In this document: piece by piece, positions 1-18,318 of the stretch
How the letters are laid out: each line of letters begins with the position of its first letter
How positions within the stretch are numbered: position 1 is the first letter of the stretch
Notes under the pieces: generated by a model
The model's database searches: none
Seen by the model: only the letters and a program-made list of their open reading frames with translations
Told to the model about the DNA's origin: nothing
Source of the DNA: Candidatus Heimdallarchaeota archaeon B3_Heim
Lineage (GTDB): Archaea > Asgardarchaeota > Heimdallarchaeia > Hodarchaeales > Hodarchaeaceae
Direction of reading: 5' to 3'
DNA length: 26,389 nt
Assembly: GCA_003144275.1 (NCBI GenBank)
Contig: NJBF01000045.1
Span: forward strand, 1 to 26,389
Translations under genes and position numbers: made by a program

Positions 1-176
1 ACCTCAGATATCTCTATATTCAGAATCATCACTATATAAGGCTTTTGGCTGCTCTTACTAGCAAATCTGAAGCTTTATAAGTTACGTTAAGACTGAAATA
101 TTTCATCGATAAATAGGGATCAACATCCGATTTGTTTTTCTCTACATTCCTAAGTATCAAACTGGAAACAAAAACA

Positions 177-1217
177 ATGCTATCAGAAGAAGAAAAGCTC
201 TATTTCTCGCGTCAAATAGTCCTTCCAAATTTTGGTGAATCTGGTCAGGAGAAGTTGAAACAATCGAAAATATTGATAGTTGGAATTGGAGGTCTTGGAA
301 CCTTCTCCAGTCTATTGCTAGCTGAAATGGGAGTAGGTTACCTTCGTATTGTCGACCGAGACCTCATTGAAAAGACTAATTTACATAGAACTCCACTTTA
401 TACCGAAGAAGATTTGAATCAAGCAAAAGTTGAGGTTGCAGCAAGGCATTTAAAGAGATTGAATCCATCTATGGTCGTAGATACTCACGCTTGCCACATC
501 AATAGCGGAAACATCGCAGAACTGCTTGAAAGTATTGATCTAGTCATTGATGGTTTAGATAATTTTGAAACTCGGCGTGTAATTAACCGTGAATGTGTGA
601 AGAAAGGTGTACCCTTCGTTTTTTGTGGTGTAAGCGGCAGAATTGGTAACATTGCGATATTCAACTCCACTGATAAGGCCCCCTGTCTCGCTTGTCTTTA
701 TCATGAAGTAAATGATGACGACCTTGAAGGTTGCGATATTACAGGCATCCATCCAGCCCTTCTAGCTGTAATAACGGGACTCCAAGTTCATGAAGCAATA
801 AATTTTCATCTTCACAAGGATACCGCGCTTGTAAACTCCTTATTATTTGTTGATCTTCAGAATTTGAGTTTTAATATGATCCCCATTCAAAAATCGAATA
901 ACTGTAAAGTGTGTTCTTCTTCTGAAAATTTTCAAGTTGAAAAACCTAAAACCGAATATTCTTCTGTAGAATTATGCGGAAGTAACTCCTTTATGATCGT
1001 TCCAGAGAGAAAGCAAGATATTAGATTGGAACAAGTTCTAGAAAAAATTTTGCATGAATTTAAATTAGTGAAACAAGGTAAGCTTGCTTTTACATTCAGT
1101 TATTCAGGGGATACAACTATTTCAGTATTTCAAGGGGGAAATGTTCTTATTAGGGGCCTAGAAACTAAAGAACAAGCGTTAAAAATCTGGGAAAAAATCA
1201 AAAATAAGTACTTATAA
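177..1217 (+). CDS. ThiF/MoeB/HesA family E1-like adenylyltransferase with C-terminal extension
   Basis: YFSRQI, GQEKL, GIGGLG nucleotide-binding loop, DRDLIEKTNLHR, DGLDNFETR, Zn pairs CLAC and CKVC, candidate catalytic Cys in GCDITG. ATG at 177 fits the family N-terminus better than the TTG at 132. Confidence 0.92.
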   Translation: MLSEEEKLYFSRQIVLPNFGESGQEKLKQSKILIVGIGGLGTFSSLLLAEMGVGYLRIVDRDLIEKTNLHRTPLYTEEDLNQAKVEVAARHLKRLNPSMVVDTHACHINSGNIAELLESIDLVIDGLDNFETRRVINRECVKKGVPFVFCGVSGRIGNIAIFNSTDKAPCLACLYHEVNDDDLEGCDITGIHPALLAVITGLQVHEAINFHLHKDTALVNSLLFVDLQNLSFNMIPIQKSNNCKVCSSSENFQVEKPKTEYSSVELCGSNSFMIVPERKQDIRLEQVLEKILHEFKLVKQGKLAFTFSYSGDTTISVFQGGNVLIRGLETKEQALKIWEKIKNKYL

Positions 1218-1434
1218 GAAGGAATTACTTGTAATCATGTTTTCTCGCTTCCTCATCTGATGAAACGCGAAGATTTTTACTAGCACTTCTTATTTAGTCT
1301 TGGCCAACATATACAGTATAGCAAAAATATCAACGAGTTAGCGAATATTAATATAAAGTGCTTAACTGATAACCCTCAGATGAATAGCGGTACGATATTT
1401 TTACAACAACGAATTGTCTGGATGAATAATATAG

Positions 1435-2598
1435 ATGGCTGATGTTATTTTATCTGCTTTTGATGAGAAAGTAGGACCTATTGCGATTTTCACAACAATT
1501 AAAGACCCTATATTGACAAAGAAAATCGCAGTAAAATCAGTTGTTTCCACACTCACTAATGTTAGGACTAGTGCTTCGGAGAATTTAGAAGGTGAGGCAA
1601 TTATTCCTTTTCCTGATGAGAATGTCATTTCGTTTATTTACTATACCACATTGAATCAGCGTACAGAAACTGGAGAACTTCGTGTCATCACACTGAGTGC
1701 AGTGGTGCAAAAGGAAAATAATACTTCTCTCTATGCTAATGCATCCATCCTCTCACAAAACGCGCTACGAATTAAGCGCCTTTTGAATAAAAATTATTCG
1801 TATGGACAACCTCTATCACCAGAGGTGATAAAAGAGCTAGAAAGGTGGGGGGAACTTAAAGAAACACCAAAATCTGAAGTTATTGCTGAAAAAGAGATTG
1901 AATTTGGATTAAGCAGTCTTTTCAAATTATTTCCAACAAAGAAAGACAGTAAAGGCTATTCAGATCCTTTAACTGCATTATTTTTTGGTCTTCTAAGTAA
2001 AATTCCCGTAATATTAATAGGACCACAAATTGAATTTCTATTAGAGCTTACGGATATGCTTCGAGAATTCCGTTCAGAGGAGGAACTTGATGTCAGGATT
2101 TCTATTGATTTAAGAGATCCGACAAATGCAGCTACATTTAAGATACCCAGAGCTGACATAATATTATTAGATGAGCAACAAAATCAAAAGAAACATTTTT
2201 ACGCTGATCCGATTATTGTGATTGGTGTAGGAAGGGATTCAAAGTATATCAATTACACTGGATCTGAGAGTGCAATTCACACTTTCAACAATATATTGAA
2301 AAAAGCTCGTGAGATTTCTGACGAATCAGTGTCGTTCCTTTATCTGAAAGGGGAACTCTTGTCTTTTACGGCAAAGTTAACAAATCTGAAGGCATATTGT
2401 CTCTCTGGAAAGCAAGGTAAGGCAAAAGATATTGCTAAGATTATTAATGTAAATGAAGGTTATCTCTATGCCTTAACTGAAGTAATACGTCTAAGAAGTC
2501 TTGTTCCAGTCGAGCAACTCAATCTGATGTTTAGGAAAAAGACAAAATTTGAAGAATTAGAACTTCGTGGAAAAAAATTCGTTGGCTTTATTCAATAA
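1435..2598 (+). CDS. Longin/uDENN + cDENN-like protein (DENN/NPRL2-like eukaryotic-signature protein), putative
   Basis: N-terminal ILSAFDEKVGPIAIF resembles the hhhxxFDxxxGP start of uDENN/NPRL2 longin domains. The central ALFFGLLSKIPVILIG..LLELTDML resembles the cDENN core helix-strand-helix. The ORF is clear; the fold call is by eye. Confidence 0.6.
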   Translation: MADVILSAFDEKVGPIAIFTTIKDPILTKKIAVKSVVSTLTNVRTSASENLEGEAIIPFPDENVISFIYYTTLNQRTETGELRVITLSAVVQKENNTSLYANASILSQNALRIKRLLNKNYSYGQPLSPEVIKELERWGELKETPKSEVIAEKEIEFGLSSLFKLFPTKKDSKGYSDPLTALFFGLLSKIPVILIGPQIEFLLELTDMLREFRSEEELDVRISIDLRDPTNAATFKIPRADIILLDEQQNQKKHFYADPIIVIGVGRDSKYINYTGSESAIHTFNNILKKAREISDESVSFLYLKGELLSFTAKLTNLKAYCLSGKQGKAKDIAKIINVNEGYLYALTEVIRLRSLVPVEQLNLMFRKKTKFEELELRGKKFVGFIQ

Positions 2599-2634
2599 TA
2601 ATCTTTCATTGAAAAAAAACTGGATTGTTTTGGA

Positions 2635-3675
2635 ATGTCACAACGAGAGAAAGAAATTTCTGGTAAAATTGCTGAGTTGGATAAAGAAAAGAAGATTTTA
2701 GAGGGAACTCGAGCATATTATGAACAGAATCTCTCTTATGCAGAACTTGAGGAAATAACTGGGATATCCATACGTGAATTTAAGAGATTTCAAAGTGATA
2801 ACGAATTTCCTTATCGTGTTGGGTCTTATAATAAACAGGCCATTTTTGACAAAATCCAAAATCGAATAAATGCTATAGAAGCTGAAATCGTAAAACTTCG
2901 TGAATCAGTTTTTGGTGCACTAGATCAATTACTATTCATTCCTTCTTGGCAAACTATGATCGATTCATCCTTCAATGGCTTCTATTTGAATCAACCAGTG
3001 CAAAAGATATTCCAAGATACAGTCATCCTATTACCAGAGCTTGCCATGACTGGATTTGAAGAAACGACAGGGGAACCCTATTTTTTGATCACTGGATTAG
3101 GAATGTATTGGGTAAAATTTGAACTAGGGGCTGGTTCAATAGTAACAGACTACAGAGAAATAACTGGAATCGTATTACCCCTTGATATCTACCACCGTGC
3201 CCAAGATGAGGCGGAGCAAGTTCTGAAAAGCGAAAATATGCGTATGACCGAGTATATGACATCAATACCCTTCTCCTTAATACTAGCAAAATCAACCACA
3301 CAGATGTATCTAAGGGGGGTAATTTCTAGAAATATATTTCATCCCTACAAAGAAAGTTTTGACCAATTCATGAAGTTGTGTAAGGATCCTAATAGTTTTA
3401 ATCCTGATGAAGGTCTCAAAATTCTCTCTGGCGGTCTAACAAGTGATAAATCGTTCTACGGTAACGAACTTCTGACTGAAAAACCATTAGGGGAATATTC
3501 AAGATTAATAGCTGGTATTAAAAATACCCAACCCAAGTTAAATAAAATTTTAGAAAACCTACAACTTGAAACAATGAGTGAGGCGCTTTTCGAGAAGCTT
3601 GTAAAGATAAAAATCGAATTCAGTGAGATTGGTAGAAATTATCTTATTGATTGGATGCCTGGCCATATCAGCTAA
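2635..3675 (+). CDS. Hypothetical protein, N-terminal coiled-coil, 36 nt downstream of the DENN-like gene
   Basis: 346-aa ORF with ATG start. Heptad-like segments (EKEISGKIAELDKEKKIL; IQNRINAIEAEIVKLRE). No family recognised. Confidence 0.8.
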   Translation: MSQREKEISGKIAELDKEKKILEGTRAYYEQNLSYAELEEITGISIREFKRFQSDNEFPYRVGSYNKQAIFDKIQNRINAIEAEIVKLRESVFGALDQLLFIPSWQTMIDSSFNGFYLNQPVQKIFQDTVILLPELAMTGFEETTGEPYFLITGLGMYWVKFELGAGSIVTDYREITGIVLPLDIYHRAQDEAEQVLKSENMRMTEYMTSIPFSLILAKSTTQMYLRGVISRNIFHPYKESFDQFMKLCKDPNSFNPDEGLKILSGGLTSDKSFYGNELLTEKPLGEYSRLIAGIKNTQPKLNKILENLQLETMSEALFEKLVKIKIEFSEIGRNYLIDWMPGHIS

Positions 3676-3681
3676 AGTTTT

Positions 3682-4821
3682 TCAACCAAAGATCTCTTTT
3701 AAAGCATTTTTAATTATCTCAACTTCTGTTTCTGTGACTCCTGGATGAATTGGAACTTCAAAGTGGTTTTCCGATATTCGGTCAGTTATAGGTAGATTAA
3801 CTGTGCTATAATCGGGGTAATTCACGTACATATTCCAACGCCATTCTTTTATTCCCTGAAGGTAAGTTGGTTGTTTATGACATCCTAGAGCATAAATTCG
3901 TCGTGAAGCAATGTTTCTGGCTTTTAACTCCTTAATCACGTTATCAACTGAGTATTTATTCTCATCAACTACGGGTGCACAAACATAATGACTATGGGTG
4001 TAACCTATAGGAGTTTTTTGAATATTTATATGCTCTAGCTCTGATATTGTTTGTCTCAGTGCCTCAGCGTTCCTTTTTCGTTTTTCTAGCATTGATGGTA
4101 ATTTTCTTAATTGAATTAATCCAATTGCAGCTAACGGATCTGGAAGACGATAATTGTAACCAATTCTGTGATGTTCATATCCTCCACTTGGACCCCTGCC
4201 ATGATTTTTGAGGCTTTTAATACGCGAAGCCAGATCATCATCATCGGTAACAATCATCCCACCTTCTCCACTAATCATATTTTTAGTTGCATAAAAGGAG
4301 AAACATCCCATATCTCCGAACGTACCTACATGTTGACCATCGATTTTTGCCCCATGAGCTTGACAGGCATCCTCAATAATCACCAAATCATGATCCTCCG
4401 CAATATCCCTAATGATATTCATATCACTGGGTAAACCAAAAATATGCACAGGAAGAATAGCTTTTGTTTGAGGTGTCACTAATTTTTTTATACTTTCGGG
4501 ATCTATAGTATAAGTTTCAGGATCTATTTCTGCAAAGATTGGTATACCCCCTCCAAATGTAATAGAATTAGCAGAGGCAATGAAAGTAAATGCAGGGGTA
4601 ATAACTTCAGCTCCCGGTAATATATTTGCTGCTTCCATAGCAAGATGTAATGCCGCAGTCCCATTCACTGCACATATTGCATGTTTGGCACCTACAAATT
4701 CTGCAAATTCTTTTTCTAAGGCTCTTGCATTTTTTCCTTCAACAAATTGGCCATTTCGAATAGTTGAAGAAACTAAGGATATTTCCTCTTCCGAAATTTG
4801 GGGTTGTGCAATAAATTTCAT
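3682..4821 (-). CDS. DegT/DnrJ/EryC1/StrS family PLP-dependent sugar aminotransferase
   Basis: NGTAALH, TFIASAN, PVHIFG, IEDACQAHG, FSFYATKN (PLP lysine), GEGG, GYNYRL, PIHP. Start set at ATG 4821 (MKFIAQP), where family homology begins. Confidence 0.95.
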   Translation of the reverse strand: MKFIAQPQISEEEISLVSSTIRNGQFVEGKNARALEKEFAEFVGAKHAICAVNGTAALHLAMEAANILPGAEVITPAFTFIASANSITFGGGIPIFAEIDPETYTIDPESIKKLVTPQTKAILPVHIFGLPSDMNIIRDIAEDHDLVIIEDACQAHGAKIDGQHVGTFGDMGCFSFYATKNMISGEGGMIVTDDDDLASRIKSLKNHGRGPSGGYEHHRIGYNYRLPDPLAAIGLIQLRKLPSMLEKRKRNAEALRQTISELEHINIQKTPIGYTHSHYVCAPVVDENKYSVDNVIKELKARNIASRRIYALGCHKQPTYLQGIKEWRWNMYVNYPDYSTVNLPITDRISENHFEVPIHPGVTETEVEIIKNALKEIFG

Positions 4822-5023
4822 AAAATCAGATCTCTTATTGAAGTTAGTTATTAAACATGAATGTATAGGAATTAAGGTTACTAACAGTGTTTCCGTTAAG
4901 ATCGTAATCAATTTTAGACTGAAACAAATACTCTTAATTCATTTTTGAACAGACTTCTTACAAATAATTACAAATTGAAATCACAAATACTGGAAAAATA
5001 AGAGCACAAAGCTGGGATCATGA

Positions 5024-5737
5024 GTGAATGTGAACATAGATGTCGAACAGATTGTTAATAGATATCAAAATGTATGTTCACAACTTTCTCACTATATCCG
5101 AGATGAAAAACATCCACAGTTTGTACTAGTAACTAAAAATCAGCCTGTAGCTCTAATATTAAATCTTTTACAACATCTAGAATCACCAATCTTTGGAGAA
5201 AATCGTGTTTCAGAAGCACTTTCCAAAATTGAGAAATGTGAAGCTTCTAATGCGGAATGGCACTATATTGGCCACTTACAACGAAATAAAGTCAAATCTA
5301 TACTTGGAAAATTTACTTTGATCCATTCATTGGCTGATATAAAATTAGCAAAAGAGATTGAAAAGAGAGCTGTAACAATTGGTCAAAATGTGAATTGCTT
5401 GATCCAAATAGATATATCTGAGGATGGGACGAAGTTTGGTTTTCCACCAGACCAGAGCTACTTAATCGACTTGATGAATGAATTGACTCAGATGTCCCAT
5501 TTACAAATAAAAGGATTAATGACGATAGCACCTTTCATCCCCTCAGAAGAAACTCGACCATATTTTAGAAAAATGCGGTCAATCTTTGATGTATTAGCTG
5601 AACAAAGCCCTCACCTGAGAAATATTGAAATGGAAATCTTATCCATGGGGATGAGTAATGATTATATCGTTGCACTCGAGGAGGGTTCCACAATGATTAG
5701 AATTGGTAGTGCAATTTTTGAAGATCAAAGCTCCTGA
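5024..5737 (+). CDS. yggS: YggS/PLPBP pyridoxal phosphate homeostasis protein
   Basis: VTK (PLP Lys), FGENRVSE, WHYIGHLQRNKVK, GLMTI, LSMGMSNDY..ALEEGSTMIRIGSAIF. GTG start. Confidence 0.95.
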   Translation: MNVNIDVEQIVNRYQNVCSQLSHYIRDEKHPQFVLVTKNQPVALILNLLQHLESPIFGENRVSEALSKIEKCEASNAEWHYIGHLQRNKVKSILGKFTLIHSLADIKLAKEIEKRAVTIGQNVNCLIQIDISEDGTKFGFPPDQSYLIDLMNELTQMSHLQIKGLMTIAPFIPSEETRPYFRKMRSIFDVLAEQSPHLRNIEMEILSMGMSNDYIVALEEGSTMIRIGSAIFEDQSS

Positions 5738-5745
5738 TTAAATTT

Positions 5746-8700
5746 ATGAAAAGGCAGAACATGAAGTTGATAAATATGACAACTCCAGAAGTTAGTTTTA
5801 CACTAAAAAAAAGTGAAACAAAAATCTTAAACACATTAATATCCTTTGGTGGTCAAACCAAACATGATCTTATTCTTATTTCTGATGTACAAGAAGAAAA
5901 AGCTGAGCAAGCAATTTCAGAATTGATAAAAAAAGAATTTATTAGACTGAACGAAGAAACAGGACGTATTTCCGCTACTTTACCCGTTTCTGCATTAACA
6001 CGAATGCTCACTGAGAATATGGCTCTCATAGAAAATATGAAAGAGAATTATAAAGAGGAATTTCATAGCTCAAAAAATTCTGTAGAAGAAGCATTAAACA
6101 AGTTTCAGGAAACAGTGAATGACGGGTTCAAAGTTCTAAAAACTCAAAATGAAGAATTAGAGGTATCAATAAAGGAGGCCATAGAAGGAAAAGAAAAACT
6201 TAACCACTCGCAGTTAGACGAGATGGTGGATCAAGTAGTTACTTCAATGAATACAAAAATAACTGAAACTCAAAATTCTGTTCAGACAAGTATCTCAGAA
6301 GGGACATCGAAATTAGATAAACACTGGGGTAGAGCCATTGATGAATTTCAAAACTTGCCTGACTCTGGGACCCGTTCTCTCAAAGATTCTATCACTAAAT
6401 ATGAACAAGAGTTAAATGAGATTATAAAATCCTCAGTTGAAAAAATTAATAGCATCCAAACTCAATTTAATGATCTACTAGGTGCAATTGAAACTGAATC
6501 CGTTACTAGGATACAAGAATTCTACTCGAACACCGATACTGTTGGCAGTGACCTGAAAGTTAATTTAAACACCGGATTACAAGAATCTCGCAAACACGAA
6601 AAGGAATTCATAAATGAAGTACATCAACATGTGAGAACCTCACTCGAAAATGATGTACTAAACGCATTGAAGGCAGTAATTTCAGATTTATCAAAAGAAA
6701 TTGATAATGATATAAACGAGGCTCTAAAACTTGTTGTTCAGCAAACTGATAAAGCAATCACTGCAAGTTCAGAACAAATGAAGACAGAGTTTACTGAGTT
6801 CACTGAAGATGCAAAGGAATTAATCCAAGAACAAAAAATCTCATTAAATGTTCTTGAAACAGAGATTTCGGAGATTACAGCAGAGCAGAAGCTAGAATCA
6901 GTAAGAGACTTATTTCTAAGCCAATTGCAAGCCGGTCAAACTACAGAACTTAATCAATTGGAAACAAGCTACCGACACACTCAAAAATCAGTAATCGATC
7001 TTGTTGAATCTTTAAGAAATTCTGCAAAAGCTAAATTAGCCCAACAAGGAGCAGAGTTTGAAAAGCTAATCAACAATTTTTCTGATTTAATTGACCAATC
7101 GGTGAGTCGGAAAGAACTGGATATTACTAGATTACAACACCTATCTCAATCTATTGAACAATTATTAAGAAATTTGCTTGTCTCAATTCCAATGCGTACA
7201 AATCAATTTAGAATTTCCTTGAAAGATTCATTAGAAGGCACTAACAAAAGTTTACAAGAAGAATATACAGAATCTTCGAGTGGTTCCGTAAGTAAAATTT
7301 ACGAAAAACTTGCTAATTCTCAACAAAGAATTGAATCTATAACTAATGAAACACTGGATGAAAGTAAAAATGAAATTGAGAAAGTAATTGCCTCATCAGA
7401 TCAATTTCAATCTGGTATTTCTGCTCTTCAAGAAGATTATCTGAGTAAAGTTGAGAATCGATTTGATCAGAGAGCTAAAGTGATGAATACAGAGTTAGAA
7501 GCAATAACTCGCAATTTCCAACAATTACTTGAGGGAATTGAAACAGGAGTTGGAGGCATTCATTCTCGTTTGACTTCGGAAGGCGTTACAAATATTTCTG
7601 CTGTTGAAACCTCTCTTCAGAGCAAACTAACTCAACTTAGGAGTGAAATAACTACCATATTTTCACAGAGTCAATCTGAGGCGCAAGAATTTGTTAGTTC
7701 GTTAAATGAAAATTTACAAACCCATTTAGAACGCACATTAGACGTAATTAAAGAGGGTTTTAGTCAAGTCAAATCTGAATATAATTTAGAGCTATCAAAT
7801 CAGTTAGAACAGCTTAATAACAAAAGTAAAGAACAACAAGACACTTTAATTGAAACAATAGAAGCTTTTTCACAGAAAGCATCCTTTAGTGGTTTTAAAT
7901 CGAATCTCGAGAAAACCCTTGAAGAAAATCAAAGTACCCTAAATGAGTTTATTGCGGAAAATCGAAGCAGTTTGGATGAAGTTATTTCTTTACAGAAAGC
8001 AAACATTACCAAATATCAAGAAAAAGGGCCTACGGATATATTAGGTTTTATTAATCAAATTCAATCCAATGCTACAACTCAAAACAAGAATATTAAGGAC
8101 TCACTGGAAGACCTACTTTCCTACCACAACAGTTTTTCAGATTCAACGATGTCTGAGGTAACAACATTAATTCGTCAGGTTCATGAGAGTGGAGATAAGC
8201 TTAAATCAATTCTTAATGAATCTTTACAGACTATGTTAACCAACCTGAATCGTACAAGCGAAAATATTGATTTATATTATTCTGATACACTAACGGAACT
8301 AGAAAATCAGCTTGGAGTCACTTCAGGATTTGTTACCTCCGAAATTGACACTTCCTTTCAATCGATCCGAAGTGAAATTGAGTCATTGAAGGAGGGTATG
8401 GAAAATACAGTAGCAAGGCTTAATACAGATCTCAAAGGAATAGTTTCTGATTCAGACCAAGAATTCAAGAGTAATGTTCCTGAAATCACAGAACAATTTT
8501 CTAGCGCTTTCGACACTTTGGTAAAAGAAAAAACCTCCTCTAACTTAGAGTTACAAAATACACTCTCTGATAATATGACAAATTTTATGAAATCTTATAG
8601 TTCTCAAGTGTCTGCTATTAGAACAAAGCTACATGATTTATTAGCTCAATTTAACAAAGCTATTGAGTCGAATCTTGAAAATTTAGACGTTATTGTCGAA

Positions 8701-9960
8701 ACTAATATAAGTCAAGCTTTGAAAAGAATCGAATCTATATATCATATCGATTCAAGCAAAGAAGATCCATTTGGTTTGCGAGATATTCATTCCAAAGTCA
8801 CAGTGGCAAATAAACGGTTAAAATCTGTCGTCTCTGATTCAATTCGTACTCAGCTTGAAGACTTTGAAAGTAACCTACCTGATCTACAAACCTCTTTTGA
8901 CGCTATTCACACTCAATCTGAGGAAGATTTGACAAAATCTATCGAAGAATTATCCGATATAATTTCAAGTTCTCAAATGACTCTTACTACCGATCTGCAT
9001 AATTATCTAAATGAGGAAAGAGAGCAATTGGATTTTTCAGAATTACGAGATGGCCTGAAGGATGTTTTACAAGGTTTTAATGAAGACTCAACCCAAAATA
9101 TTGAACAGCTCTCTCTTGATTTTACCGACAGTATTCAACGTGCAATCAATGAGGTTAACAAATCACGGGAAGAAATACAATCAATTTTAGCTGATTTGAC
9201 GGAAGTAATGACGGAGCGAATTGTCAAGTCAACTACACAATTGACAACATTGAAGTCCGACCTGAGTATGAAAGTGGAAGTGATGAGTAGTGAATTTTCA
9301 AAAAATTTATCTACAGATCTAGAATCGTACAATAATGATATAGAAAAATCTAATTTAGAAAACAAAGGGAAAATGGCCAAGTTTATCCAATCATTGAATA
9401 ATGAAATTGAAACTTATCTCTCAGAATTTTTAAACAAAACCAATGAAATTCTAAACGGGATAAAAGATTCCCACTCACAGCAAGCCGATGTTTTGGAAAC
9501 TTTAGAGACTGAATTATCTGAAAATGAGCCAATTTCATATTTACGGTTACTAAAATTATCAACAAATCATGCGATCAATGAATACTTTATGAAGCTAATA
9601 GAAAAAGCTTCTAAACGAGTTACGTTATATATGTCCGATCCTACTATTCTTTCATCTGCTGATCTCAAATCTATTCCCGCAGGAAAACGAATTTGGATTT
9701 TTACAAGCTATGATTTCAGTAAAAAGGGTAAAAAATGGTTTACTGAGATTGGTAATCAAGTAAATATAAATTTACGAAAATCTAAAGGTGCTAGTAAAAT
9801 TACTGGGATATTAGCCGTCAAGGATGAAGATCAAGCCGTTGTCTTACCTGATGAAGTTGGTTTTACCACAGTTGATGAGAAATTTGTGGCTTACTTGTCG
9901 AATATATTAAATATGTTAAAGGGTTCATCTCTCAGACCAAGAAAAGGATCTGGTCAATAA
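5746..9960 (+). CDS. Giant TrmB-like protein: N-terminal wHTH, ~1200-aa amphipathic helical/coiled-coil region, C-terminal PLD-fold effector-like domain
   Basis: The N-terminus ETKILNTLISFGGQTKHDL...AISELIKKEFI...ATLPVSAL matches the TrmB wHTH pattern. The C-terminus INEYFMKLIEKASKRVTLY...RIWIFT...ILAVKDEDQAVV matches the TrmB sugar-binding/PLD-like fold. The middle is rich in E/Q/S/L/N/K and almost free of Pro. The exact start (5746, 5761 or 5776) is uncertain. Confidence 0.7.
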   Translation: MKRQNMKLINMTTPEVSFTLKKSETKILNTLISFGGQTKHDLILISDVQEEKAEQAISELIKKEFIRLNEETGRISATLPVSALTRMLTENMALIENMKENYKEEFHSSKNSVEEALNKFQETVNDGFKVLKTQNEELEVSIKEAIEGKEKLNHSQLDEMVDQVVTSMNTKITETQNSVQTSISEGTSKLDKHWGRAIDEFQNLPDSGTRSLKDSITKYEQELNEIIKSSVEKINSIQTQFNDLLGAIETESVTRIQEFYSNTDTVGSDLKVNLNTGLQESRKHEKEFINEVHQHVRTSLENDVLNALKAVISDLSKEIDNDINEALKLVVQQTDKAITASSEQMKTEFTEFTEDAKELIQEQKISLNVLETEISEITAEQKLESVRDLFLSQLQAGQTTELNQLETSYRHTQKSVIDLVESLRNSAKAKLAQQGAEFEKLINNFSDLIDQSVSRKELDITRLQHLSQSIEQLLRNLLVSIPMRTNQFRISLKDSLEGTNKSLQEEYTESSSGSVSKIYEKLANSQQRIESITNETLDESKNEIEKVIASSDQFQSGISALQEDYLSKVENRFDQRAKVMNTELEAITRNFQQLLEGIETGVGGIHSRLTSEGVTNISAVETSLQSKLTQLRSEITTIFSQSQSEAQEFVSSLNENLQTHLERTLDVIKEGFSQVKSEYNLELSNQLEQLNNKSKEQQDTLIETIEAFSQKASFSGFKSNLEKTLEENQSTLNEFIAENRSSLDEVISLQKANITKYQEKGPTDILGFINQIQSNATTQNKNIKDSLEDLLSYHNSFSDSTMSEVTTLIRQVHESGDKLKSILNESLQTMLTNLNRTSENIDLYYSDTLTELENQLGVTSGFVTSEIDTSFQSIRSEIESLKEGMENTVARLNTDLKGIVSDSDQEFKSNVPEITEQFSSAFDTLVKEKTSSNLELQNTLSDNMTNFMKSYSSQVSAIRTKLHDLLAQFNKAIESNLENLDVIVETNISQALKRIESIYHIDSSKEDPFGLRDIHSKVTVANKRLKSVVSDSIRTQLEDFESNLPDLQTSFDAIHTQSEEDLTKSIEELSDIISSSQMTLTTDLHNYLNEEREQLDFSELRDGLKDVLQGFNEDSTQNIEQLSLDFTDSIQRAINEVNKSREEIQSILADLTEVMTERIVKSTTQLTTLKSDLSMKVEVMSSEFSKNLSTDLESYNNDIEKSNLENKGKMAKFIQSLNNEIETYLSEFLNKTNEILNGIKDSHSQQADVLETLETELSENEPISYLRLLKLSTNHAINEYFMKLIEKASKRVTLYMSDPTILSSADLKSIPAGKRIWIFTSYDFSKKGKKWFTEIGNQVNINLRKSKGASKITGILAVKDEDQAVVLPDEVGFTTVDEKFVAYLSNILNMLKGSSLRPRKGSGQ

Positions 9961-17577: not shown

Positions 17578-18318
17578 TTGACACGACTTGTAGCATATTC
17601 AGTGACTTCTGACGGCCATTGGGATCCAGTGGCGTTCTCTCTTAAAGATCTTAAACCTAAAGTAGTTTTCATCCTTGTTGATGACGAAAAAAGGAAAATT
17701 TGGATCTGGATAGGAAGAGATGCCACAATCAAAACTCGCTTTATTTCATCAACTGCTGCGACTGAGATTCGTAGATTGTATGGGTTAACTTTTCGTGTAC
17801 AAACGATTGATCAAGGCGAAGAATCTCGTGAATTTTCAGAATGTATAGAATCGATCCCAAAAAAAGGTCTGGTACCAGAATTAGCCGAAGGACAAAAGGA
17901 GAAAAAAGCAACTAAAACCACTCGCTCCTCTTCCGCTGCAAAAAAAGTTACTCCAAGAATTAAAGTGGGTAAATCGACAGTAAAAAAGGCCAGTGCCACA
18001 AAAACTACCCGTAAAACTCCTGTGCGAAAAACTACACCAAGAAAAACAGCGACCAAAACCACTCGTAAACCCACTACAACAAAAACCAAAAAAACTACAC
18101 CTAAATCTAAATCGCGTAGTTCAAAAGAGGTTCTGTCTTTAAACAGTTATTTACCACAAGATACAAGCATTATCACCACCCCACCTTGTCCTGAATGTGG
18201 CGTTGGAAATTTGCTGCCTTATTCTGAAAATACTATCCAGGAAGGAAGAGAAAATTTGATACTACCCTTTGCTAAGTGGGTTTGTTCAAAATGTGAGTAC
18301 TCACCTACTCACAAATAA
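17578..18318 (+). CDS. Gelsolin-domain protein with Lys/Thr-rich linker and C-terminal Zn ribbon
   Basis: VFILVDDEKRKIWIWIGRDA...RF.S...A...R......IDQGEESREF is the gelsolin repeat signature. CPEC...CSKC forms a Zn ribbon. TTG start, with an in-frame TAA immediately upstream. Confidence 0.82.
   Translation: MTRLVAYSVTSDGHWDPVAFSLKDLKPKVVFILVDDEKRKIWIWIGRDATIKTRFISSTAATEIRRLYGLTFRVQTIDQGEESREFSECIESIPKKGLVPELAEGQKEKKATKTTRSSSAAKKVTPRIKVGKSTVKKASATKTTRKTPVRKTTPRKTATKTTRKPTTTKTKKTTPKSKSRSSKEVLSLNSYLPQDTSIITTPPCPECGVGNLLPYSENTIQEGRENLILPFAKWVCSKCEYSPTHK
17900..18125 (+). repeat. Low-complexity K/T/R/P repeat region inside the gelsolin gene
   Basis: Repeated KTTR/KTTP/KTP units. At DNA level, AAAACCACTCG occurs twice along with similar AAAACTAC units. 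Confidence 0.8.

Follow-up and report, generated by a model that had tools for sequence, protein, structure and literature searches.

The 26,389-nucleotide contig NJBF01000045.1 of Candidatus Heimdallarchaeota archaeon B3_Heim, the whole of which is the window, encodes a protein of 387 amino acids, P0001. Within the longin-DENN superfamily, this archaeal protein most likely belongs to the folliculin/SMCR8/C9orf72 branch, and it lacks the long insertions found in its eukaryotic counterparts. The closest fold to P0001 is that of folliculin (FLCN), and, judged by its sequence motifs, the P0001 family resembles C9orf72 in that a GP motif is present and the canonical arginine finger is apparently absent. 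In eukaryotes, the FLCN-FNIP, C9orf72-SMCR8 and GATOR1 complexes inactivate Rag and Arf GTPases at lysosomes, and they are linked to cancer as well as to amyotrophic lateral sclerosis and frontotemporal dementia. Longin-DENN proteins in Heimdall-group archaea bear on the origin of the eukaryotic endomembrane and nutrient-signalling machinery. The contig (26.4 kb) belongs to a 3.95-Mb, 94%-complete Hodarchaeales genome.

Predicted fold and family of P0001

The open reading frame (ORF) of P0001 begins with ATG and runs through 387 codons without interruption. A first-pass annotation of the DNA had read it as a tripartite longin-DENN-like protein, quoting three segments, FDEKVGP (residues 9-15), LFFGLLSKIPVILIG (182-196) and AKDIAKIINVNEGYLYAL (330-347), all of which are real and go well beyond a chance resemblance. 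Homologues retrieved by a word-indexed search fell into 45 clusters, with E-values down to 1e-209 and identities down to 31%; most are 387-388 amino acids long, and all named members stem from Hodarchaeales/Heimdallarchaeota metagenome bins. The first two quoted motifs are indeed conserved, being nearly invariant across these ~45 clusters. In an alignment of 36 family sequences (A1), the source of all column conservation figures given here, F9, D10, E11, G14 and P15 of the first motif and F183, G185, V192 and G196 of the second region are at least 90% conserved and P191 is invariant, while the third segment is less conserved, with L347 and E349 alone reaching that level. By domain, columns at least 90% conserved make up 53 of 140 in the longin, 35 of 138 in the middle domain and 10 of 73 in the C-terminal helices.

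The AlphaFold2 model computed with A1 (mean predicted local distance difference test, pLDDT, of 84) comprises a longin of b-b-a-b-b-b-a topology plus two helices (3-138), a linker, a domain of alternating strands and helices (159-293) and a helical tail. Within the longin, the elements are beta1 (3-10), beta2 (14-20), alpha1 (25-42), beta3 (52-59), beta4 (64-76), beta5 (82-92), alpha2 (93-120) and alpha3 (129-138), and in the tail three short helices (330-337, 341-353 and 359-365) come after a long one (297-323). Both the longin fold and the central cDENN alpha/beta core that characterize the tripartite DENN module are thus present in the model, which supports the longin-DENN-like reading of the first-pass annotation, which had proposed structure prediction and fold comparison as a check; FLCN came out as the closest fold in the search. 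The best match among clusters of the AlphaFold Database was A0A523THY3, a 'Folliculin/SMCR8 longin domain-containing protein' (E 6.5e-15, residues 1-368). The terminal strand 382-386 is ordered in the full-length model and disordered in a model of the isolated C-terminal domain, so that it probably docks on another domain.

The sequence bridge from P0001 to folliculin runs through its more distant relatives, which were added by exhaustive phmmer searches and match mainly within the first ~140 residues. The Pfam Folliculin model (PF11704) does not match P0001 itself, but it matches 6 of 35 of these distant relatives, three of them above the curated cut-off, and the link to P0001 is therefore a transitive one; another of the distant phmmer matches is to Pfam C9orf72-like (one relative, E 8.8e-5). 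Run against the whole source genome, PF11704 gave no match at E <= 0.01, with control genomes equally silent, so that absence is not shown by this result. Another Asgard family has, in one complete genome, a tandem array of three Folliculin-positive genes encoding 372, 375 and 166 amino acids (L011:5091-8396; G116:C1:639090-642395), and their longins share 31-32% identity with P0001, including the blocks GEAIIPFPDE, KKIAVKS and LY..A..LS. The homology of P0001 to the FLCN branch thus rests on both sequence and fold. All three tandem genes carry the GP motif and 'KARG..R', and they are possibly a hetero-oligomeric set of paralogues; downstream of them lie a weak PCI-like ORF and then a TPR/SNAP-like gene on the opposite strand.

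GP motif, loop arginines and the proposed role

The GP motif, located in the loop at, or the start of, longin strand beta2, has been described as specific to the GAP-type (GTPase-activating protein) longins FLCN, NPRL2, SMCR8 and C9orf72, as missing in FNIP2, NPRL3 and DENND proteins, and as common to a class of Heimdall longins (PMC12290439). It is kept throughout the P0001 family (Table 1), and its glycine, G14, is invariant among the distant relatives too. The catalytic arginines R164 of FLCN and R147 of SMCR8 are carried by the loop that joins the last two strands of the longin (10.1101/2020.04.16.045708). Folliculin-positive Asgard relatives carry an 'ARGG.R' loop motif with an invariant R-G, and the Arg of this pair aligns with position 79 of P0001, which across the 36 family sequences is Gly in 25, Thr in seven, Ser in two, Glu in one and Asn in one, and never Arg. 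The second Arg of the motif, four residues further on, aligns with R83, which stands at the end of the beta4-beta5 loop and the start of beta5 and is kept in 35 of the 36 sequences. Human FLCN, taken to read ...KDSLAR(164)GFQR(168)W..., a numbering consistent with that of the known F157 deletion, would have R164 as the first Arg of ARGFQR and, by alignment through Asgard intermediates, would pair R83 with R168. In sequence searches aimed at the solved FLCN, NPRL2 or SMCR8, profiles of the P0001 family, of a longin superfamily sample and of the 'ARGG.R' subgroup, as well as a 63-residue fragment, reached the Lokiarchaeal longin 8yqg only and never FLCN.

By analogy with the eukaryotic complexes, P0001 would probably serve as a FLCN/C9orf72-type platform for a small GTPase, with a catalytic mode that could be that of a GAP, that of a guanine nucleotide exchange factor (GEF), or non-catalytic. 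As in FLCN-FNIP2, C9orf72-SMCR8 and GATOR1, it would bind one of the organism's many Ras-superfamily GTPases through a face of its very strongly conserved longin, and would control the nucleotide state of the bound GTPase. It may behave as a GP-bearing subunit without a finger, like C9orf72, in which case a partner would supply catalysis or regulation would proceed without an arginine finger; alternatively, within the same proposal, a displaced finger could be provided by R83, which is conserved and sits at the loop's base.

A number of results weigh against this proposal. In the literature that we searched, Asgard proteins of the FLCN/DENN type have not been studied biochemically, and Pfam and NCBIfam scans of P0001 returned no matching model (Pfam E <= 0.1); it follows from the latter that the motif recognition of the first-pass annotation could not be derived from annotation. 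Global template modelling scores (TM-scores) of P0001 are only 0.30-0.36, the high scores coming from per-domain alignments, and the relative orientation of its domains is therefore either different or uncertain. The 26-kb contig carries neither a small GTPase gene nor a roadblock gene recognizable by a Pfam match, and thus offers no genomic pointer to the client of P0001; all 46 Ras-family matches of the source genome lie on other contigs, in line with the observation of Tran et al. that genes for Asgard GTPases do not, as a rule, share operons with those of their regulators. Finally, the presence of G/T/S in the column of the relatives' invariant Arg argues against a canonical arginine-finger GAP, and two divergent members have Gln or Val in place of R83.

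These last points also bear on the rather unlikely case that P0001, in the manner of FLCN, SMCR8 or NPRL2, acts as a GAP with a catalytic arginine finger of its own, inserting R83, or R/K12 beside the GP motif, into the GTPase active site from the beta4-beta5 region of its longin. Such a role would agree with the invariance of a motif reported as specific to GAP-type longins, with FLCN being the closest fold, and with the retention in 35 of 36 sequences of R83, whose place closing the beta4-beta5 loop is in the region of the FLCN and SMCR8 fingers; however, G/T/S79 is the counterpart of the invariant Arg in the 'ARG' motif of Folliculin-positive longins and R83 that of the second Arg, R83 would match R168 of FLCN rather than the finger R164 (on the presumed FLCN sequence), it is missing in two divergent members, and it is less free to reach the nucleotide because it sits at the start of a beta strand. 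Quite unlikely is also a DENN-type GEF that, like DENND1A/B for Rab35, would engage a Rab-like GTPase mainly via its cDENN lobe. The tripartite uDENN-cDENN-dDENN fold of the canonical DENN-module proteins and Rab GEFs DENND1A/1B, DENND10, DENND11 and AVL9 aligns with P0001 over nearly its whole length, but it does so with scores below those of FLCN, and none of the curated DENN-family Pfam models (uDENN, DENN, dDENN, Avl9, SPA, C9orf72-like) matches P0001. DENND proteins have moreover been reported to be without the GP motif that P0001 has (PMC12290439).

Two further explanations would remove P0001 from GTPase regulation altogether. We regard as highly improbable that the C-terminal three-helix unit is a nucleic-acid-binding winged helix and P0001 a transcription regulator with a longin sensor, a reading favored by weak winged helix-turn-helix (wHTH) signals (18 of 41 C-terminal segments match Pfam FeoC, best E 7e-4), by fold matches of the isolated C-terminal domain that are almost all winged-helix domains, and by the distant relative P0077. 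This metagenomic protein of 237 amino acids joins a FLCN-type longin directly to a genuine wHTH of the HTH_24 type (E 8.9e-5, above cut-off) and has ArsR/IclR/TrmB-type matches as well at residues 187-231, and hence a longin-wHTH fusion exists in this superfamily. Equally, we give hardly any credence to the P0001 gene working with its upstream ThiF/MoeB-type E1-like neighbor in a ubiquitin-like or sulfur-carrier pathway. The order of ThiF and target gene is kept in the window, at two relatives' loci (L001 and L003) and in a 40%-identity relative (L005), but the housekeeping genes on either side (XPD-like helicase, DegT, YggS) are likewise conserved, and the order may simply stem from common descent; in addition, the intergenic gap in the window is 217 nucleotides, the link is lost at L002 and L004, and no fold or motif ties longin-DENN proteins to E1 chemistry.

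The proposed platform for a small GTPase also raises the matter of a partner, since FLCN/SMCR8-type longins work as dimers with a paralogous longin(-DENN) partner (FNIP, C9orf72, Lst4). A two-copy complex prediction of P0001 (with A1) scored 0.00, which speaks neither for nor against dimerization. Four further longins of the P0001 type are encoded in the source genome, none adjoining the P0001 gene; three are in ORFs of 339-386 amino acids (one of them without GP), and one is in a giant frame of 8,821 codons on the minus strand of another contig (L009, longin at G000:C87:16437-16814). This last longin carries both GP (FFDQTKGP) and a FLCN-type 'EARGG' loop, and is the only one found in the source genome with both. 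It is doubtful, and in our estimate very unlikely, that the P0001 family is a C9orf72-like archaeal counterpart of the non-catalytic GP subunit in eukaryotic longin GAP complexes, one which lost its finger Arg and forms an asymmetric pair with a FLCN-type longin that has the finger and is encoded at another locus. If it were, the split between a catalytic and a holding subunit, as in FLCN-FNIP, SMCR8-C9orf72 and NPRL2-NPRL3, would be older than eukaryotes, and P0001, with its winged-helix-like tail and the co-oriented downstream gene product P0002, would be a tractable system for reconstitution.

Gene neighborhood and distribution

Table 1. Features of P0001 and of other genes in the window, with residue numbers referring to P0001
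Feature	Position	Strand	Basis or remark
P0001, whole ORF, folliculin-like longin-DENN protein, 387 aa	1435..2598 (incl. stop codon)	+	ORF list, translation, homologue family, AlphaFold2 model, fold matches
Longin (uDENN) domain, residues 1-140	1435..1854	+	model secondary structure; most conserved part of P0001
GP motif, G14-P15, at start of longin beta2 (14-20)	1474..1479	+	present in 35/35 family members
Longin beta4-beta5 loop, residues 77-81 (TETGE), plus R83	1663..1683	+	model secondary structure, column frequencies, alignments
Flexible interdomain linker, residues 141-157	1855..1905	+	pLDDT <50 at 144-155; length varies, indels in alignment
cDENN-like alpha/beta core, residues 158-295, with conserved strand-helix IPVILIGPQIEFLLE (190-204)	1906..2319	+	
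Helical tail (possible dDENN equivalent), residues 296-368	2320..2538	+	long helix and three-helix HTH-like unit
C-terminal tail, residues 369-387, ending in short strand 382-386	2539..2595	+	full-length model; G384 invariant (A1)
ThiF/MoeB-type E1-like adenylyltransferase, 361 aa, upstream neighbor	132-1217	+	Pfam ThiF 2e-66
P0002, 346 aa, coiled-coil-like N-terminus	2635..3675	+	ORF list; 36 nt after P0001 stop
Protein of 1,404 aa, very long apolipoprotein-like helical repeats	5746-9960	+	weak N-terminal TrmB-type HTH match; conserved downstream in relatives
Protein of 246 aa, single gelsolin repeat	17578-18318	+	Pfam 1.6e-6
ORF of 243 aa	21346-22077	+	no Pfam match; not matched by FLCN-type longin profile in genome search

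The gene order around P0001 (Table 1) is kept in relatives at 52-56% identity (L001 and L003), where an XPD-like helicase, the ThiF/MoeB-type E1-like protein, the P0001 orthologue, P0002, a DegT aminotransferase (opposite strand), YggS and a giant coiled-coil protein follow one another. The 40%-identity relative at L005 retains ThiF, target and DegT and lacks P0002, and the wider order of XPD-like helicase, ThiF, target, DegT and YggS persists down to this relative; the neighbors at L002 and L004 are unrelated to those of P0001. An ORF of 345-346 amino acids occupies the P0002 position at L001 and L003 and is absent from L002, L004 and L005, making P0002 a possible operon partner of P0001 that is not universal in the family. 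No Pfam or NCBIfam model matches P0002, and its Atlas model is poor (pLDDT 0.44) with no usable neighbor. We considered whether it might be a hidden FNIP-like or DENN-like partner and rejected this, as BLASTP found no similarity to P0001 or to the paralogue P0092; despite this, P0002 and P0092 share a similar-looking C-terminal W-M-x-G motif.

At L004, a gene for a Ras-family GTPase of 164 amino acids with weak RING-type matches (L004:345-839) lies ~200 nucleotides upstream of P0035, an orthologue with 48% identity. As a conserved link to a client this neighbor was discarded, being found at L004 only and not at L001, L002, L003 or L005. Two minus-strand ORFs overlapping the P0001 gene (1401-1628, 75 amino acids, and 1956-2159, 67 amino acids) were judged spurious because of the strong conservation of the plus strand. 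The 217-nucleotide spacer upstream of the gene is AT-rich, with no feature validated, and an Rfam scan of positions 1-5200 of the window gave no match. Public runs that hold P0001 DNA come from marine sediment and cold-seep metagenomes, all of those listed being DNA and none RNA.

Of the 21 species sampled from the GTDB genus-level group to which the window belongs, about half have a full-length orthologue (E <= 1e-100), and three other Asgard families contain relatives of ~380 amino acids (E ~1e-27); 361 of 400 genomes sampled across the Asgard phylum have no P0001 match at 1e-10. Two genomes of the same genus-level group encode a longin-only version of 152 amino acids (G069:C4:96927-97349 and G070:C13:98844-99263; E ~1e-59). 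In another genome of this group the gene is matched in two pieces within a frame of 491 codons (G073:C8:38492-39829), which suggests a truncation or an insertion.

Comparison with known systems

Asgard FLCN/DENN proteins have been known since 2020-21. Liu et al. (10.1101/2020.10.19.343400) described Asgard DENN proteins, among them some Heimdallarchaea proteins with the exact domain organization of FLCN, which bears out the first-pass statement that proteins of this type had been reported in Asgard archaea, and Bulzu et al. found folliculin N-domains in Lokiarchaeia. P0001 leaves the published picture that Asgard archaea have such proteins unchanged, and adds to it a member invisible to Pfam, distinguished by the lack of an Arg at the finger column and by a narrow, highly conserved Hodarchaeales distribution. 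With the Asgard FLCN/SMCR8-type longin and longin-DENN proteins (Liu et al., bioRxiv and Nature 2021; Traffic 2025, PMC12290439) it shares the phylum, an architecture of ~370-410 amino acids and the beta2 GP motif; in contrast to them, P0001 and its orthologues are missed by Pfam Folliculin, carry G/T/S in place of the invariant loop Arg, and occur in full-length form only within part of a single Hodarchaeales group of GTDB genus rank. Unlike the operon reported by Liu et al. (10.1101/2020.10.19.343400), P0001 and its orthologues, apart from the one at L004 with its Ras-family neighbor, have no adjoining GTPase or roadblock gene. The family is compact, highly conserved and confidently modelled, yet missed by current Pfam models, and P0001, being small and free of insertions, is a candidate for the first biochemical or structural study of an archaeal FLCN-like protein. 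As it keeps GP and has no Arg at the finger column, it is also naturally suited to testing whether an arginine finger is required in GP-type longins.

Among the eukaryotic proteins, human FLCN is the GAP subunit for RagC/D (PDB 6NZD, 8DHB, 3V42). P0001 has only 12-13% identity to it, is shorter (387 versus 579 amino acids) with none of the long insertions, and has no Arg at the finger column (as aligned via Asgard intermediates); no FNIP-like partner was identified for P0001, and there is no mTORC1/Rag-Ragulator context. In the Arf/Rab GAP formed by C9orf72 and SMCR8 (PDB 7MGE, 7O2W, 6LT0), C9orf72 is the subunit that bears GP and is not catalytic; its WD motif is not evident in P0001, and identity is ~12%. 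NPRL2 is the catalytic subunit of GATOR1, and the first-pass annotation had likened the N-terminus of P0001 to it. Only residues 1-144 of P0001 align with NPRL2, and its middle and C-terminal domains appear to follow FLCN/DENN and not the C-terminal architecture of NPRL2.
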